Source: Rhodospirillaceae bacterium (GTDB lineage: Bacteria; Pseudomonadota; Alphaproteobacteria; UBA6615). Taken from it: a stretch of 64,000 nucleotides of DNA. The stretch is taken from the NCBI GenBank assembly GCA_002713365.1, contig PASR01000002.1:3133-67132 (forward strand), written 5' to 3'. Below are positions 3,996 to 61,301 of this stretch, in pieces; the stretch's first letter is position 1, and each line of letters starts with the position of its first letter. Under the pieces are notes generated by a model. The model was given only the letters and a program-made list of their open reading frames with translations, was not told the DNA's origin and ran no database searches. A program made the position numbers and the translations under genes.

Positions 3996-6900
3996 ATGAA
4001 ACTATATTTAATTCTTTATGGTATGTATTTGCTTTTTCGTTTTGCTTGCTGGCGGAACGCTGAGTTTCGTGACCGTCTGAAAACTAAAAACATAAGGGTT
4101 CAGATTCGAACACAAGATGGTAAGCATGGTCGTATATTCATATTTAAGGATGGGCATGTAAGTTCAAAGGTCGGGGTGCATTCTTCGGCTGATTTCTCTC
4201 TTGTTTTCAAAACTTATGCAATTGCTGTGAAATTGCTAATGCCTCCAATCAACCAATTAGAACAAATTGAGGCGATGAAAAACTTTCTTTTTCATCCAGA
4301 AGGAAAAGATGAAGACAGTGTTTGGTTCGCGCAGACGGTGATGACGGCTATTAGTACTAGGTGGAAGCATGGTACCGCGGCAGGTGATGGAACCACACGG
4401 TATTGTACTATTACAAATGGTGGCCCACTATTTGTTTATGTTAAAGACGAAAAAATTGTTCGTACGACACCTATTATTTTTAATAATGATGATGCGATGT
4501 CCTATTCCATCCATGCACATGGAAAAACCTTTAATCCCCCAAGGCAAACATCGCTTTCGCCGCATGGCATGAACTGGAAGTCAATGGTTTATGCACCAAA
4601 TAGACTTCTAACCCCCATGAAACGTGTTGATTTTGATCCGAACGGTGAACGTAATATCATCAACAGGGGAGTATCAGGGTATGAACCCATTAGCTGGGAT
4701 GAGGCATTTGACCTGGTAGCATCTGAGATCAAACGTATGAAGCGGGACTATGGTCAAGGTGCGATCGCCCAATCTAATGGCTCTCATCATACTTGGGGAA
4801 ATATAGGTTACTATTTAAGTGCCAAAATGCGTTTTATGAATGCTATTGGTACTACCGAAGTTCACCATAACCCAGATAGTTGGGAGGGCTGGTATTGGGG
4901 GGCGGTTCATCATTGGGGTGGAAGTTTACGTGTTGGAGGGGGCGAACCCTTCGGTACTATGGAAGATTGTTTGAAAAATGCTGAGATGATTGTCTTTTGG
5001 TCGAGTAATCCCGAAGCCACAAACGGTATATATTCTGGTTTTGAAGGATCAATTCGCCGAAAGTGGTTAAAAGAATTAGACCTAAAAATAGTGCACATTG
5101 ATCCACATCTAAATGATACAGCACAATTTCTAGGCGGCAAGTGGATAGCGCCTAGGCCAACTACTTCGCCAGCCTTGGCACTTGCCATTGCTAACGTTTG
5201 GATGAATGAAGATCTTTATGACAAAGACTATGTTGCAAATCGAACACAGGGCTTTGAGGCCTGGAGTGATTACGTTCTTGGAAAAGAGGATGGAGTAGAA
5301 AAATCACCGGAATGGCAGGAGCAAGAAACGGGCGTATCTGCCAAAGATGTACGAGCATTGGCACGTGAATGGGCGTCAAAACGTACATATTTAGCCGCAG
5401 GTGGCATGGGCAATACATTCGGAGGTGCAGCGCGAAACCCTACTGGTAGCCAGTGGACACGAACTATGGTTTGCCTGATTGCAATGCAAGGTTTGGGTAA
5501 GCCGGGTATTAACGTTGGCAATATGCAATTAGGCGTGCCACATGATTTTAGCTTTTATTTTCCTGGGTATGCTGATGGTGGAATATCTGGCGATCTGAAT
5601 AATACAGCTCTTGCTGTAAGTCTTTACCAACGGATGCCTCAGCTAGCAACTATAAACCCGTCGAGCCAAAAAATCCCGCGTCTTAAATTACCTGATGCAA
5701 TAATTGATGGTCATACCGAAGGTCACCTTTGGGACGCAAGAACAATTGAAGGACAATTTTCTGAAGCAGTTTATCCGGCCCCTGGTCATTCGCCGGTTCA
5801 TATGTTGTACCGTTATGGAAACTCGATATTGGGTACACTTAGCGATGCTAACCGTTACGTTTCAATGTATCGTTCACCAAATTTAGAATTTGTTGTTAAC
5901 CAATCTATATGGGATGAGGGTGATACTCAATTTGCCGATGTTATTTTGCCTGCCTGTACTCATTTGGAGCGCACGGATATAGGAGAATGGGCTAATGCTG
6001 GTGGCTATGGAGCGAACTTTAATTCACAAGTTAATCATCGTGTAATTGCTTTTCAATCCAAATGTATTGAGCCGCTAGGTGAGAGTAAATCAGACTATGA
6101 TATCTTCGCTGGCATAGCCACACGATTAGGTCTTGGCAGTTACTTCACAGAAGGAATGCGAGACATTGATTGGGTTAAACGAATGTTTGATGCATCGGAT
6201 TTGCCTGGTCATATATCTTGGAAAAAATTTATGCAAAAGGGTTACTTTGTGGTGCCTCCAGAAAGAGAAGACCTGCGATCTCCAACAGCATATAACTGGT
6301 TTGCAGAAGGGCGTAAAAAAGATGTCCCTGAAGCAATGCCGTTACCTGGAGATTATACCGAAGAATTTGGTGAAGGACTGCAGACACAAAGTAGCAAGTT
6401 CGAATTTGAATGCGAAAGTTTAAAAAGGTATAACCCTAGTGATGATGAAAGAACACCAATTCCTAAGTATTCTAGGTCTTGGGAAGGACCACACATACCG
6501 GAGCTAAAAGAGTTTCCTCTGCGTATGATAACACCTCATGGACGTTATAGTTTCCATACCCAAGGTGATGGCAAGGATAGTTATTTAAACGATATTAAGG
6601 ACCATCGTGAATGGATCGATGGGCACTATTATTGGATCATTCGGCTAAATACTGAGGATGCTAAAATCCGTGGTATCAAAGAACATGATCTTGTGCGTGT
6701 ATTTAATAATAGAGGTGCCGTAATTTGTGCCGCACATATCACATCCCGATTGATCCCTGGGGTAGTTCACAGCTATGAATCTTCGGCTGAGTACAAGCCA
6801 ATGGGAAAACCTGGTGAATCTGTCGATCGCGGTGGTTGTGTTAATCTACTGTCGCCGTCCAGAACCCAAATAAAAAATGCCCATTCTATGGCTAACGGAC

Positions 6901-7004
6901 TGTCTATGGTCGAAATTGATAAATGGGACGGAACTATAGAATTTATAAGAAAAGATTCACTTACGAAAGCCCAGGGCTTGAATGAGGAAGGTTCTTTTAA
7001 ATGA
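3996..7004 (+). CDS. Molybdopterin (bis-MGD) oxidoreductase large subunit, pyrogallol-phloroglucinol transhydroxylase-like, with ~115-130 aa N-terminal extension
   Basis: From about residue 133 onward it shows motifs I recall from the Pelobacter acidigallici transhydroxylase alpha subunit: [69 protein letters not shown]. There is no twin-arginine signal and no N-terminal Cys cluster. The stop overlaps the next start (ATGA at 7001-7004). Confidence 0.85.
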
Positions 7005-7840
7005 AAAAATGGAACCTAATTGTTGATGTTGAAAACTGCACTAACTGCAACGTCTGTACATTAGCTGTACAAGATGAACATGTTGGTAATTCATTCCCTG
7101 GCTATGCGGAAGAAATGCCAAAGCATGGACATCGCTGGATTGAAATTATGCGTAAAGAGCGTGGTGCGGGAAGTGCTACTGATGTCGCATACCTTCCAAC
7201 CATGTGCCAACACTGTGATGATGCTCCGTGTATGAAAGCTGCACCAGATGCAGTTAGTAAACGGCCAGACGGAATAGTGATTATAGACCCGGTTAAAGCC
7301 AAAGGCCGTAAAGACTTGGTGGGTAGTTGTCCCTATGGTGCGATCTGGTGGAATGAAGAAAAGCAAGTGCCACAGCATTGGATTTTTGATGCGCATTTGC
7401 TTGATGCGGGTTGGAAAGAGCCGCGGTGTGTTACGGTATGTGCTACGAACGCCCTACAATCGGTCAAAGTTGACGATGATGAAATGTTGCACCTCATTGA
7501 TAAGCAAGGTCTTGAGGTTCTGCATGAGGAGTATGAAACCAAGCCACGGGTTTATTATAAAAACTTATGGCGTTATACATCTTCATTCATTGCAGGCTCG
7601 TTGTCTGGCATCCGAGATAATAAAATAGAATGTCTTGAAGGTCTTGAAGTTCAGTTGGTCTTTGATAACGAAAACGTAGAAACACAAAATACTGATAATT
7701 TTGGAGATTTTAAGTTTGATAAACTGAAAGCTAGAGGCCAAACCTACCAAGTTCAGGTAATTGATAAGGGTAAAATAGTTAAAACTATTGATGTTATATT
7801 GGACCAGTCCATAAATATTGGTGAAATTATTTTAGAATAA
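7001..7840 (+). CDS. Iron-sulfur (4Fe-4S) beta subunit of the molybdoenzyme, with C-terminal Ig/carboxypeptidase-regulatory-like domain
   Basis: 279 aa with Cys groups [21 protein letters not shown] and CVTVC, typical of 4Fe-4S ferredoxin-type subunits. The Cys-free beta-rich tail ([27 protein letters not shown]...) resembles the BthL-type subunit. Translationally coupled to the alpha gene. Confidence 0.85.
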
Positions 7841-57957: not shown

Positions 57958-58350
57958 ATGTATGAGGCCAGAGCTGATGTTGCAAAAATTGAGGAGCTCG
58001 AAAATAAACGATACGACGCGATGTTAAATGCAGATATTCATGTGCTTAATGATTTGCTGCATGAGAACTTAATATATTCACACTCAACTGGAGGTTTAGA
58101 TACCAAAGAAATTTATCTTAATGCTCTGCGAGATAAAGTGTCTATATATAAGTCAGTAAAACGTGATGACCAGACTGTTAGAATTACAGGAGATATAGGT
58201 CTAGTTTTTAATCATGTCCAAATACATGCAGAGCATAAGGGCAGTGAGTTGCGTCTTGATAATAGGCTACTAGCAGTATGGACACGCGATAAGGGTATTT
58301 GGCGGCTTTTAGCTATTCAATCTGGCGCAATTCCAAAACAGATAGACTAG
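57958..58350 (+). CDS. SnoaL/DUF4440-like NTF2-fold protein
   Basis: 130 aa. LENKRYDAMLNADIHVLNDLLHENLIYSHSTG...AVWTRDKGIWRLLAIQS is typical of the DUF4440/SnoaL-like fold. Confidence 0.6.
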   Translation: MYEARADVAKIEELENKRYDAMLNADIHVLNDLLHENLIYSHSTGGLDTKEIYLNALRDKVSIYKSVKRDDQTVRITGDIGLVFNHVQIHAEHKGSELRLDNRLLAVWTRDKGIWRLLAIQSGAIPKQID

Positions 58351-58440
58351 TATTATAAATACTTTAGATTATTAATTATAGTAAAATTTTTTTAAATATT
58401 ATAGAATTACATCGAATCAAGAATTTTAAAAGGGATTGTT

Positions 58441-58911
58441 ATGTCTAATAAACTTGGAATAGGTGATAAATTTCCTAGTATGACGATTAATTTAGTTAAT
58501 GGTGGTACTATAAATTTACCAGAAAGCTTAGATTCTAAGTATGGGGTTATCCTATTTTACCGAGGGCATTGGTGACCATATTGTCGCCGTCAGTTAGGCG
58601 GTTTTGCAGAAAATAAGAAACAGCTAGATGAAGCTGGTGTTAAGGTTTTTGCCGCAAGTATAGATAATTTTGATAATGCTAAAGAAGTAGCTAATGATTT
58701 AAATTTTCCGGTTGGTTATGAAGTTTCTCGAGATATTGCCGATCAGATAGGGGCCTGGTGGGAAGAGCGCAGGCAGATTATACAACCCTCAGAATTTATT
58801 ATAGGACAAGATAACAATATTATAGTGTCAAGCTATAGCGATGGCCCTCTTGGTCGGATGGATGCAACTGACGTAATTAAATTGGCAAATTTCTTTACAT
58901 CTCGTGAGTAG
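58441..58911 (+). CDS. Peroxiredoxin/redoxin-like (AhpC-TSA fold) selenoprotein candidate; UGA at 58573-58575 in a U-x-x-C redox motif
   Basis: Absent from the ORF track because it is split by TGA. ATG at 58441, with SD AAAGGGA 7 nt upstream. The translation reads MSNKLGIGDKFPSMTINLVNGGTINLPESLDSKYGVILFYRGHW-[TGA]-PYCRRQLGGFAENKKQLDEAGVKVFAASIDNFDNAKEVANDLNFPVGYEVSRD... The frame stays open for 111 codons after the TGA, to TAG at 58909-58911. The TGA sits exactly where homologues have the first Cys of FYRG-WCP-C. Confidence 0.65.
58583..58602 (+). promoter_or_regulatory. SECIS-like hairpin downstream of the in-frame UGA
   Basis: GUCGCC (58583-58588) pairs with GGCGGU (58597-58602): four G-C pairs plus two G-U pairs. 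The 8-nt loop GUCAGUUA begins with G 16 nt from the U of UGA. This is within the spacing I recall for bacterial SECIS elements. Confidence 0.4.
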
Positions 58912-58934: not shown

Positions 58935-61301
58935 TTAAGATCTGCAATTATGCGGATCTTTTTTTATATCTGTAGTATTTTGCATCGCTTTCCAAATACG
59001 TTCAGAGGTTGCAGGCATATCAATGTGACGAATACCAAGCGGTCTTAGCGCATCACATATGGCATTCATAACAGCTGGTAGAGCTCCTACGGTGCCAGCT
59101 TCACCAGCACCTTTGAATCCAAATGGATTATTTTTAGAAGGTACTTCATGTCCGATAATATTGAATGATGGAAAGTTGTCTGCCCTAGGCATAGTGTAGT
59201 CCATGAAGGAACCTGAAAGAAGTTGTCCAGTTTTATCATCATAAACAATTTCTTCCATTAATGCTTGGCCGGCACCTTGCGATATACCGCCATGTATTTG
59301 CCCTTTAACCAGCATTGGGTTTAACATTAAACCAACATCATCAACTACAACATAACTTACGATTTCGGGTGTACCAGTTTCACAGTCAATTTCAACTTCA
59401 CAGACATGGCAGCCATTTGGGTACGTTGGTCCAGGCGGTAGAACTATAGAATTTTCAGCAAGACCAATTTCCATGTCTTTTGGAAGTTTTGCTGGTAAAT
59501 AAGCTGCCTTAGCAATATCTACGATGCTTATAGATCGATCTGTTCCTTCAACAATAAATTTTCCTTCTACAAAGTTTATATCAGCTTCTGCGGTTTCCAT
59601 TAAATGTGCAGCAATACTTTTGGCTTTAGTAATGATTTTATCGGCAGCATGTTTTAAAGCAGCACCTCCAACACTAATCGAACGAGAACCGAATGTGCCC
59701 TTACCGTGATGTGCTATATCCGTATCACCATAAAGTATATTTATCTGATTGAAATCTAAACCAAGAAGTTCGGATGCGATTTGACGGAAAGCGGTCTCAT
59801 GCCCTTGTCCATGAGAATGTGTACCCATTACCACAGAGGCACCCCCATCACTTTCAAAACGAATAGAAGCACTTTCTTCATTTGGAATAGGCAAAGGTCC
59901 TCCAGCTATCTCTATTACGCTAGCAATTCCTAATCCGCGTAATTTTCCATTTTCTTTTGAAATCATTACTCTTTTTTGGTAGCCATCTTTATCTATAGCT
60001 TTTATTGCTTTATCCATCACAACCTCAAAATCACCAGAATCGTAGGTGAAAACAAAACCCGTGTCATACGGAAATGATTTTGCTGAGATTAAGTTGCGTC
60101 GTCTTAGTTCTATTGGATCGAAACCTAGATCATGGGCTGCTGTTTCAATTAATCTTTCTACTGCGTAGGACGCTTCTGGCCTTCCTGCTCCTCTATAAGC
60201 CGTCGTTGGACTGGTATGTGTGTATAAGCCTCTTACTTCAGCAAAAATGTGAGGCGTAGTATAAACACCTGATAGGCCGCCTAAATTATTTGTAGGAGAA
60301 TGAGGTCCAGCAAAGCTCAGATATCCCCCAAGATTCGCTTTTGTGCTAACTCTCAGACCTAGAAAATTACCTTCATTATCTAAAGCAAGACCTGCTTTAG
60401 TAACATTATCTCTTGCATGGTAATCGGTTGCCAAGGATTCTGAACGCGTTGCTACCCAACGGACGGGTCTTCTAATTTTACGGGATGCCCAAAGAACGAG
60501 TGCGTGCTCAGCAAATGGAGCTCCACGCATTCCAAACCCACCTCCCATGTCTGGTGATATAATTCTCAATCGTGATTCAGGAATGCATAAGACGTTATTA
60601 GCTAATTCTGAACGAACACGGTGAGGTGATTGCATACCGGCATATAGGGTATATCGTTGGTTGCTAGTGTTATAAAAACCGATAGCACCCCGTGGTTCCA
60701 TTGTATTTGCAGAGACTCGGCTTATTACAAAATCAAGTTCGACTATATGCGGTGCATTCTTAAATACATCATCTACTTTGTTTTTATCTCCAATAGTAAA
60801 ATAGAAACTTTCATTATTACGTACTTCATCCCAAACTTGAGCTACCCCGTCTTCTAATGCAGTGCCAGTATCAGTTGCGACTGGCAAAATATCGTAGTCA
60901 ACCTCAATTATTTCTGAAGCATCAATTGCTTGTTCTAGTTTTTCTGCGAGGATAATAGCTATTGGGGCTCCAACCATATTCACTACTGAATTGGCTAGTA
61001 TAGGGTAAGGGGGTTCAAGCATAGGTTGGCCATTTTCTTGTTTGCGTTTTACACTGCAAGAAAAATTACCTAAACCATCCGTTTCTACATCTGCACCTGT
61101 TAAAATTGATAATACGCCGTCCATATTTTCAGCTAAAGTGGTGTCAATTGATTTTATTTTTGCAGCTGCATGCGGTGATCTTAATACGGACATAAAAACT
61201 ACATTCGGCACTTGGTGGTCGTCAGTATAATTACCAAGTCCTGTCAGTAGTCTGCGGTCTTCAACTCTAGGTACTGATTGCCCTATACCATATTCACGCA
61301 T
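58935..61301 (-). CDS. Xanthine dehydrogenase/CO dehydrogenase-family molybdopterin-binding large subunit (CoxL form II-like)
   Basis: 788 aa. N-terminal GQSVPRVEDRRLLTGLGNYTDD, the AYRGAGRPEA motif (form II-type, not AYxCSFR), and GGGFG and GAGE motifs. Confidence 0.85.
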   Translation of the reverse strand: MREYGIGQSVPRVEDRRLLTGLGNYTDDHQVPNVVFMSVLRSPHAAAKIKSIDTTLAENMDGVLSILTGADVETDGLGNFSCSVKRKQENGQPMLEPPYPILANSVVNMVGAPIAIILAEKLEQAIDASEIIEVDYDILPVATDTGTALEDGVAQVWDEVRNNESFYFTIGDKNKVDDVFKNAPHIVELDFVISRVSANTMEPRGAIGFYNTSNQRYTLYAGMQSPHRVRSELANNVLCIPESRLRIISPDMGGGFGMRGAPFAEHALVLWASRKIRRPVRWVATRSESLATDYHARDNVTKAGLALDNEGNFLGLRVSTKANLGGYLSFAGPHSPTNNLGGLSGVYTTPHIFAEVRGLYTHTSPTTAYRGAGRPEASYAVERLIETAAHDLGFDPIELRRRNLISAKSFPYDTGFVFTYDSGDFEVVMDKAIKAIDKDGYQKRVMISKENGKLRGLGIASVIEIAGGPLPIPNEESASIRFESDGGASVVMGTHSHGQGHETAFRQIASELLGLDFNQINILYGDTDIAHHGKGTFGSRSISVGGAALKHAADKIITKAKSIAAHLMETAEADINFVEGKFIVEGTDRSISIVDIAKAAYLPAKLPKDMEIGLAENSIVLPPGPTYPNGCHVCEVEIDCETGTPEIVSYVVVDDVGLMLNPMLVKGQIHGGISQGAGQALMEEIVYDDKTGQLLSGSFMDYTMPRADNFPSFNIIGHEVPSKNNPFGFKGAGEAGTVGALPAVMNAICDALRPLGIRHIDMPATSERIWKAMQNTTDIKKDPHNCRS

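Follow-up and report, generated by a model that had tools for sequence, protein, structure and literature searches.

Does a reading frame interrupted by a single TGA encode a functional selenoprotein, or is it the remnant of a dead gene? This question is raised by a locus in a 64,000-nucleotide (nt) stretch of DNA from Rhodospirillaceae bacterium (assembly GCA_002713365.1, contig PASR01000002.1, positions 3,133 to 67,132), hereafter called the window. There, positions 58441-58911 of the forward strand hold a redoxin-like frame split by a TGA, and an earlier inspection of the letters (the sequence-only reading) had proposed that this codon is decoded as selenocysteine (Sec) and that the gene is not dead. 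We compared the locus with its orthologues, and we hold it to be very probably a functional selenoprotein gene in this genome. Indeed, the proposal gains support from the TGA found in 80/80 orthologues, from selection on both sides of it, from the covariation of a hairpin, from the linkage to sel genes in relatives and from the motifs published for the 'Prx-like 1' family. The doubt that remains comes from the Sec machinery, which was seen neither in the window nor in about 13 kb of its flanks. The elements of the gene, in window coordinates, are the following:

58441..58911, forward strand: probable selenoprotein redoxin gene ('Prx-like 1', UxxC; AhpC/TSA fold), 156 sense codons, then TAG.
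58430..58435, forward strand: Shine-Dalgarno-like AAGGGA, 5 nt upstream of the ATG, read from the sequence and putative in function.
58573..58575, forward strand: in-frame TGA, codon 45, predicted Sec and first residue of the U-P-Y-C redox motif (orthologue and assembly comparison).
58582..58584, forward strand: TGT, Cys48, predicted resolving Cys of UxxC, invariant in the alignment and aligned with the peroxidatic Cys of peroxiredoxins (hidden Markov model alignments to 2cx3 and to ResA, 3c71).
58786..58788, forward strand: CCC, Pro116 in the IQPSEF motif, in invariant columns, aligned with the cis-Pro of ResA and with the catalytic Arg of peroxiredoxins (alignments to 2cx3, 6q5v, 5zte and 3c71).

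The gene lies between 58351 and 58934, in the sole gap of such size that is free of open reading frames (ORFs) in this part of the window. This gap holds a single frame, which starts with an ATG at 58441 and stops with a TAG at 58909-58911. Its only internal stop is the TGA at 58573-58575, around which the translation is ...VILFYRGHW*PYCRRQL..., and a further 111 codons are open behind it; on re-reading, the gap, the start with its Shine-Dalgarno-like sequence, the sole internal TGA and the open run were all as first described. When the same bases were shuffled 20000 times, an open run of 111 codons came up 5 times. When Cys is set at codon 45, the 156-residue product matches the Pfam AhpC-TSA profile (pfam00578) at 1.3e-23, over positions 1-122 of 124. 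Since the profile is covered almost completely, the match spans the TGA, and the redoxin-like nature that had been proposed for the product is borne out. The statement that TGA is an ordinary stop elsewhere in the window was also correct, as it ends 8 of the 55 long ORFs; under the standard code, 90% of the window is taken up by long ORFs. A scan of the whole window for other TGA-split ORFs in gene-free gaps returned none besides the redoxin gene.

Is the TGA a feature of the family or an accident of this genome? A protein search for homologues of the redoxin returned 511 sequences, in which the motif appears in several guises. Some are full-length proteins with HWCPYC, HWCPFC or HWCPLC, i.e., true Cys forms; others are full-length proteins with HWWPYC, which come from short contigs translated with TGA as Trp; and a very large group is made of fragments of 104-106 residues that start directly past the motif, i.e., gene calls cut at the TGA. 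Alignment to the Cys homologues, which had been suggested as a check, places Cys in the UGA column (P0004, P0006, P0009, P0025, P0027 and P0055), and the residue aligned with the UGA in homologues is never Trp. At the DNA level, we gathered the 80 best orthologues, each from a different GTDB species and all from alpha- or betaproteobacterial metagenome-assembled genomes (MAGs) with a GC content of 0.40-0.71. Codon 45 is TGA in every one of them, and 79 are free of any further stop. The sole further disruption is a second in-frame stop, TAG at codon 79, in a betaproteobacterial MAG (L067, 3931-4410), which could reflect a pseudogene or an assembly error. The same TGA is present in six further assemblies of the window's own population (L081, L082, L085-L088). 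In two of these (L081 and L082) the gene differs from that of the window by four codons, two of the differences being synonymous and two conservative, while L085 and L087 are identical to it.

A conserved interruption is of interest above all if the sequence behind it is still selected. Against orthologues of 63-75% identity, the synonymous sites are saturated, and the ratio of non-synonymous to synonymous substitution rates (dN/dS) was taken instead from a sister species represented by three JGI metagenome contigs (L096-L098). Its gene shares 88.5% nucleotide identity with that of the window, its GC content is 0.35, and it keeps both the TGA and the gene order (a DUF4440 gene, the redoxin and a convergent molybdenum-hydroxylase gene). 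Of the codon differences between the two genes, 33 are synonymous and 15 non-synonymous, and neither stop nor frameshift, which could have spoken for a dead gene, was found past the TGA in the sister species. The dN/dS amounts to 0.08 upstream and 0.11 downstream of the TGA; between L032 and L034, it is 0.065 downstream of the UGA. Judging from these substitutions, purifying selection acts on the part of the gene past the TGA in the AT-rich lineage to which the window belongs, so that translation of the UGA is the only sensible reading.

How could the ribosome distinguish this UGA from an ordinary stop? In bacteria, the signal is expected just downstream, as a selenocysteine insertion sequence (SECIS), and the candidate is the following:

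58586..58602, forward strand: SECIS-type hairpin starting 10 nt past the UGA, with 5' arm GCCGUC (58586-58591), loop AGUUA (58592-58596) and 3' arm GGCGGU (58597-58602).

When the U of the UGA is numbered 1, positions 14-19 pair with positions 25-30 around a 5-nt loop, AGUUR. Covariation was evaluated on 75 distinct sequences of an alignment of 81, with 500 shuffles and with slid registers as controls. Standard pairs fill 97.3% of the cells, four of the six pairs have changed on both sides, none of the 500 shuffles reaches any of the observed values, and the slid controls are at most 53% paired. The compensatory changes include C15-G29 to G-C in L053 and L079, G14-C30 to U-A in L054 and G17-C27 to A-U in L078, and the pair 18-26 takes five standard pair types across the orthologues. 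In the window, all six pairs are intact, including two G-U wobbles (G14-U30 and U18-G26); the imposed structure has an energy of -8.1 kcal/mol, and the GC content of the hairpin reaches 65%, that of the genome 37%. The sequence-only reading had drawn a stem of 6 base pairs (bp) closed by an 8-nt loop; such a hairpin can be drawn but shows no covariation across the 81 orthologues, the conserved stem being shifted by 3 nt and closed by the 5-nt loop. A longer stem that includes the UGA, preferred by RNAfold in many GC-rich orthologues, shows no covariation either, as 223 of the 500 shuffles are as good.

The RNA past the TGA follows the consensus UGA CCN UAY UGY CGC CGN CAG UUG GNC GGC UU, and its conservation goes well beyond what the protein needs. 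The G-U of the loop is invariant. The Leu codon in the loop is TTG or TTA in 80/80 orthologues, whereas such codons make up 124 of 1011 Leu codons (12%) elsewhere in the same genes, and most of the orthologue genomes are GC-rich and favor CTG and CTC; likewise, the Gln codon of the stretch is CAG in 80/80. Two distant Cys homologues (L093 and L094, 43-48% identity) cannot form the hairpin, with imposed energies of +6.5 and +7.3 kcal/mol, against a median of -10.2 kcal/mol for the 81 Sec forms. The bacterial SECIS of the Escherichia coli fdhF type has a SelB-binding apical stem-loop about 11 nt past the UGA, with an essential G and U in the loop region. The window hairpin resembles it by its place inside the coding sequence and near the UGA, by its loop G-U and by a constraint that exceeds that of the protein. 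It differs in being much shorter, with 6 supported bp, no supported lower stem reaching to the UGA and no bulged U. With its stem 10 nt past the UGA and its invariant loop G-U, the hairpin fits the bacterial SECIS type, and would be the site of SelB binding. The alignment of 81 UGA and hairpin sequences provides a covariation-supported SECIS consensus, which could seed a search model.

Some homologues show other fates of this element. Two Cys forms that group within the Sec forms (L083, 10001-10480, and L084, 5483-5959), 60-61% identical to the window protein, keep the hairpin after TGC or TGT, at -10.3 and -10.8 kcal/mol, respectively; the loop of L083 has changed to AGCUA, and both loci are devoid of sel genes. 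By these traits, the two seem to have exchanged Sec for Cys recently, the hairpin being a fossil SECIS. In L014 (180-239), where the protein reads RRQLAAFE, the hairpin has slid by one base (6 bp, 4-nt loop AGUU), and the structure is kept via a different pairing.

Does the redoxin gene travel with the machinery that decodes UGA? To describe the surroundings of the gene in relatives, we clustered the ORFs of the 80 loci, named the clusters by NCBIfam and set a limit of 10 kb from the redoxin gene. The loci with each element within this distance are as follows:

tRNA-Sec: 42/80 loci, 13 of them within 500 nt (e.g., L026 9822-9917, L062 9878-9973 and L079 1057-1152).
SelB (TIGR00475, 459 bits): 39/80 loci.
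SelA (TIGR00474, 585 bits): 31/80 loci.
Pyridine-nucleotide oxidoreductase-SelD fusion: 13/80 loci.
At least one of tRNA-Sec, SelB, SelA and the SelD fusion: 47/80 loci.
AhpD-related CFYUT selenoprotein (NF041238), split by its own TGA: 19/80 loci.

In these last 19 loci, the redoxin gene is typically preceded closely by the AhpD-related gene, at a median distance of about 0.9 kb (e.g., L008 8665-9447 plus the next ORF, and L053 720-1070), which suggests that the two form a two-selenoprotein redox pair in relatives. In uncultured Alpha- and Betaproteobacteria, the redoxin thus looks like the cargo of a compact Sec island; such a compact sel arrangement was described in Proteobacteria in 2006 with fdhA only (PMC1794560). 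The window belongs to another setting. A convergent CoxL-like gene at about +500 nt defines a micro-synteny common to the window, L001, L032 and L034 only, and the last three have no sel genes nearby.

What would such a protein do? We mapped its active site by profile alignments to solved structures (2cx3, 6q5v, 5zte, 3c71), with the following correspondences:

Arg41: in peroxiredoxins, Pro of PxxxTxxC; in ResA, none.
Sec45 (predicted): in peroxiredoxins, Thr/Ser of TxxC; in ResA, first Cys of W-C-P-H-C.
Cys48: in peroxiredoxins, the peroxidatic Cys; in ResA, second Cys of W-C-P-H-C.
Pro116 (invariant IQPSEF motif): in peroxiredoxins, the catalytic Arg; in ResA, the cis-Pro.

Hence, three of the four catalytic residues of peroxiredoxins are replaced (Pro by Arg41, Thr by Sec45 and Arg by Pro116), and the Cys alone is kept. 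The redoxin has neither the strict PxxxTxxC motif nor the catalytic Arg before the FI(I/V)D strand, where the invariant Pro116 stands, and it does show the WCxxC plus cis-Pro arrangement of ResA/TlpA in the alignment to 3c71. An AlphaFold (AF2) model of the natural Cys homologue P0004 has a predicted local distance difference test score (pLDDT) of 91 and shows helix 49-60, its first long helix, with the CxxC at the N-terminus. Its best matches in the PDB are Bcp and Prx folds, with TM-scores of about 0.8 (0.82 to Bcp4, 3hjp), i.e., a Prx-type thioredoxin fold. The redoxin has no signal peptide, its N-terminus (MSNKLGIGDKFP) leading directly into the domain, which starts after 7 residues. Since the thioredoxin/ResA-like set (W-U-P-x-C and cis-Pro) is present and the Pro, Thr and Arg of peroxiredoxins are gone, thiol:disulfide chemistry is favored: the product is most likely a cytoplasmic thiol:disulfide (or selenenylsulfide) oxidoreductase rather than a classical peroxiredoxin peroxidase. 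The choice of substrate is read here from the active-site residues.

Several results weigh against a functional selenoprotein in this genome. Neither selA, selB, selD nor tRNA-Sec was found in the 64-kb window, in about 9 kb of its right flank (L085) or in about 4 kb of its left flank (L089), and the window has no tRNA genes of any kind. The SelA, SelB, SelD fusion and AhpD-related protein of the relatives, used as tblastn queries, gave no match in the window, in the flanks or in L032, L034 and L037; these AT-rich relatives, the first two of which share the synteny of the window, have no sel genes within 10 kb of the redoxin gene. Folded as a single sequence, the window hairpin does no better than shuffled sequences (z = -0.09), its significance coming from the orthologue comparison only. 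Rfam returned nothing relevant, either at the gathering threshold on the whole window or at E <= 10 on 58540-58660. NCBIfam has no model for the redoxin family: the scores of the redoxin stay below the cut-offs of PrxU (NF040737, 21.8 vs 270 bits), of the SelL-related model (NF040769, 23.6 vs 120 bits) and of ResA (32.4 vs 170 bits), and the gene therefore goes unannotated. The lack of sel genes and tRNA-Sec around the gene, here and in L032, L034 and L037, would suit a recent pseudogene in a lineage that has lost the Sec machinery, where translation would end at codon 45 and the downstream frame would be open by inertia. We judge this improbable, as inertia does not readily account for a dN/dS of 0.11 past the TGA, with more than twice as many synonymous as non-synonymous differences and no stop or frameshift, nor for a hairpin that is fully paired in an AT-rich genome, where two of its pairs are preserved as wobbles. 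Moreover, the intact frame recurs in at least six assemblies of the population, and an open run of its length is the rare outcome of shuffling reported above.

Granted that the UGA is read, it could be read otherwise than as Sec, through a reassignment of TGA to Trp or through near-cognate read-through with Trp or Cys. The W that stands at codon 45 in the public proteins P0001, P0002, P0003, P0005, P0007, P0011, P0015 and P0022 seems to speak for it, but these are gene-caller artefacts on short contigs, in a genome whose TGA ends regular ORFs under the standard code. Homologues have at this place the Cys of a CxxC, and two features specific to Sec decoding are present, a conserved hairpin and, in relatives, neighboring selC, selA and selB, which makes any such reading highly improbable. 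Even less credit, practically none, is due to the idea that an error of sequencing or assembly made TGA out of TGC or TGT. Nothing was found in its favor, and independent assemblies refute it: TGA stands at 58573-58575 and its counterparts in the six further assemblies, in the three JGI contigs of the sister species and in 80 other species. The contest that matters more concerns the chemistry of a true selenoprotein. Selenols are fast with peroxides, the fold is nearest to the Bcp/PrxQ and Prx6 or Prx1 peroxiredoxins (TM-score of about 0.8), and in 19 related loci the redoxin directly follows the AhpD-related selenoprotein (NF041238), an arrangement reminiscent of AhpC and AhpD, which form a peroxidase pair in mycobacteria. 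The peroxiredoxin-shaped fold and the AhpD-like neighbor in relatives keep alive the view that the protein reduces hydroperoxides through selenium, in the manner of GPx or Prx and with Sec in the peroxidatic role. We nevertheless see it as a minority possibility beside a disulfide oxidoreductase, since three of the four peroxiredoxin catalytic residues are replaced, the motif and the cis-Pro match CxxC oxidoreductases of the ResA type, and the AhpD-like gene was not found in the window.

If the gene is a selenoprotein gene with oxidoreductase chemistry, as we favor, its expression and its cycle could run as follows. The UGA at codon 45 would be decoded as Sec, with the hairpin at 58586-58602 and its loop AGUUA in the role of a bacterial SECIS. 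As the ribosome pauses at the UGA, this hairpin would bring in SelB-GTP-Sec-tRNA(Sec), and the remaining 111 codons would then be translated. In the folded protein, Sec45, just before the first helix of the peroxiredoxin-shaped thioredoxin fold, would be the attacking nucleophile. Cys48 would resolve the intermediate as a Sec45-Cys48 selenenylsulfide, which a cellular thiol reductant would re-reduce.

Is the protein new? A selenoprotein of this kind appeared in the study of the Sargasso Sea selenoproteome (Zhang, Fomenko and Gladyshev 2005, PMC1088965) as a 'Prx-like protein', represented by 22 sequences, with a thioredoxin-like UXXC in place of TXXU. It became 'Prx-like 1' (pfam00578, UxxC) in the Global Ocean Sampling (GOS) study (Zhang and Gladyshev 2008, PMC2398784), which counted 225 selenoproteins in 37 samples and reported one read with adjoining Prx-like 1 and AhpD-like 2 genes. 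In Dataset S1 of the same work, the '#Prx-like 1' entries contain sequences with ...LFYRGHWUPYCRRQL... and ...IQPSEF..., and the window protein is 57% identical to one entry, JCVI_READ_286511 (E = 8e-55). In a review of 2026, the family still stands as 'predicted with high confidence', i.e., short of biochemical proof (PMC13188914). The window protein shares with the published Prx-like 1 the pfam00578 domain, the UxxC and the FYRGHWUPYCRR and IQPSEF motifs, and the published pairing with an AhpD-like gene matches the 19 loci of relatives. It differs from the published family in its setting, away from sel genes and from any AhpD-like neighbor, and in nothing essential. By its sequence, then, the redoxin is a new AT-rich marine alphaproteobacterial member of a family already published. 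As this family is known and abundant, our result is a sound annotation rather than a discovery.

The nearest relatives outside this family differ in telling ways. With ResA and TlpA (3c71, 1st9), the redoxin shares the AhpC/TSA-Redoxin domain, the W-C-P-x-C motif and a cis-Pro two residues before a conserved Phe, but those proteins are membrane-anchored or extracytoplasmic, while the redoxin is devoid of a signal peptide and would carry Sec for the first Cys. Bcp/PrxQ and other peroxiredoxins (3hjp, 2cx3, 6q5v) are its best structural and PDB sequence matches, with Cys48 at the peroxidatic position; unlike them, it has Arg41, Sec45 and Pro116 where their active-site Pro, Thr and Arg stand. PrxU (NF040737) is likewise a selenoprotein of the AhpC/TSA fold, but its Sec replaces the peroxidatic Cys (TxxU), whereas that predicted for the redoxin lies three residues upstream (UxxC).

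The surroundings of the gene add a few observations. One element directly follows it:

58937..58970, forward strand: terminator-like stem-loop of 10 pairs followed by a T run, 26 nt past the redoxin stop and before the convergent molybdenum-hydroxylase gene (consensus match, putative function).

The convergent gene (58935-61301, reverse strand) encodes the large subunit of a molybdenum hydroxylase of the CoxL/xanthine-dehydrogenase family, a neighbor of the redoxin in 33 loci; small-subunit genes occur in 15 loci and medium-subunit genes in 11. Upstream, a DUF4440 protein of 130 amino acids (57958-58350, forward strand) has no NCBIfam match, and the position of its gene is kept in the sister species (L096-L098) and not across the wider redoxin family. 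At 3996-7840 (forward strand), a molybdopterin oxidoreductase of 1002 amino acids (Pfam AhtL-like_1st, Molybdopterin and Molydop_binding) adjoins the gene of a 4Fe-4S subunit. Proteins of the window are encoded exactly by the NCBI MAG GCA_045562975.1, and the region also lies within a 194-kb contig of the ENA assembly ERZ8578522.

In public data, genes of the redoxin family are called as a 44-residue stub, as a fragment of about 105 residues from an internal TTG or ATG, or in full length but with a false Trp, where short contigs were called under code 4. Such fragments (e.g., L085 6949-7083; L096 1251-1385 and 1404-1721) make up most of the best 120 of the 511 database matches. Hence, the failure of annotation is systematic, gene callers routinely splitting Prx-like 1 genes. 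One public sequence is peculiar: the first 52 residues of P0002 (from an ENA contig of 691 nt) are those of the window protein, and the remainder is the orthologue of L032 (MarineAlpha12), with the junction in the ultra-conserved UGA/SECIS stretch. It is probably a chimeric metagenome assembly, and possibly a product of recombination.

What does the finding mean for the organism and the family? A selenoprotein redoxin is expected in marine Alphaproteobacteria and is not new biologically. A more speculative view, which we think rather unlikely, is that the redoxin, often together with the AhpD-related CFYUT selenoprotein, is in uncultured Alpha- and Betaproteobacteria the main cargo of a compact selA-selB-selC(-oxidoreductase/SelD fusion) island, in the role that fdhA plays in cultured Proteobacteria. 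The redoxin might then handle selenium, e.g., by reducing the donor for the SelD fusion, rather than take part in general antioxidant defense, and the gene of the window's lineage would have been separated from the island. For the genome studied here, our analysis adds a real gene, and it implies that the organism decodes UGA as selenocysteine; further selenoprotein genes and a selenium requirement are therefore to be expected.

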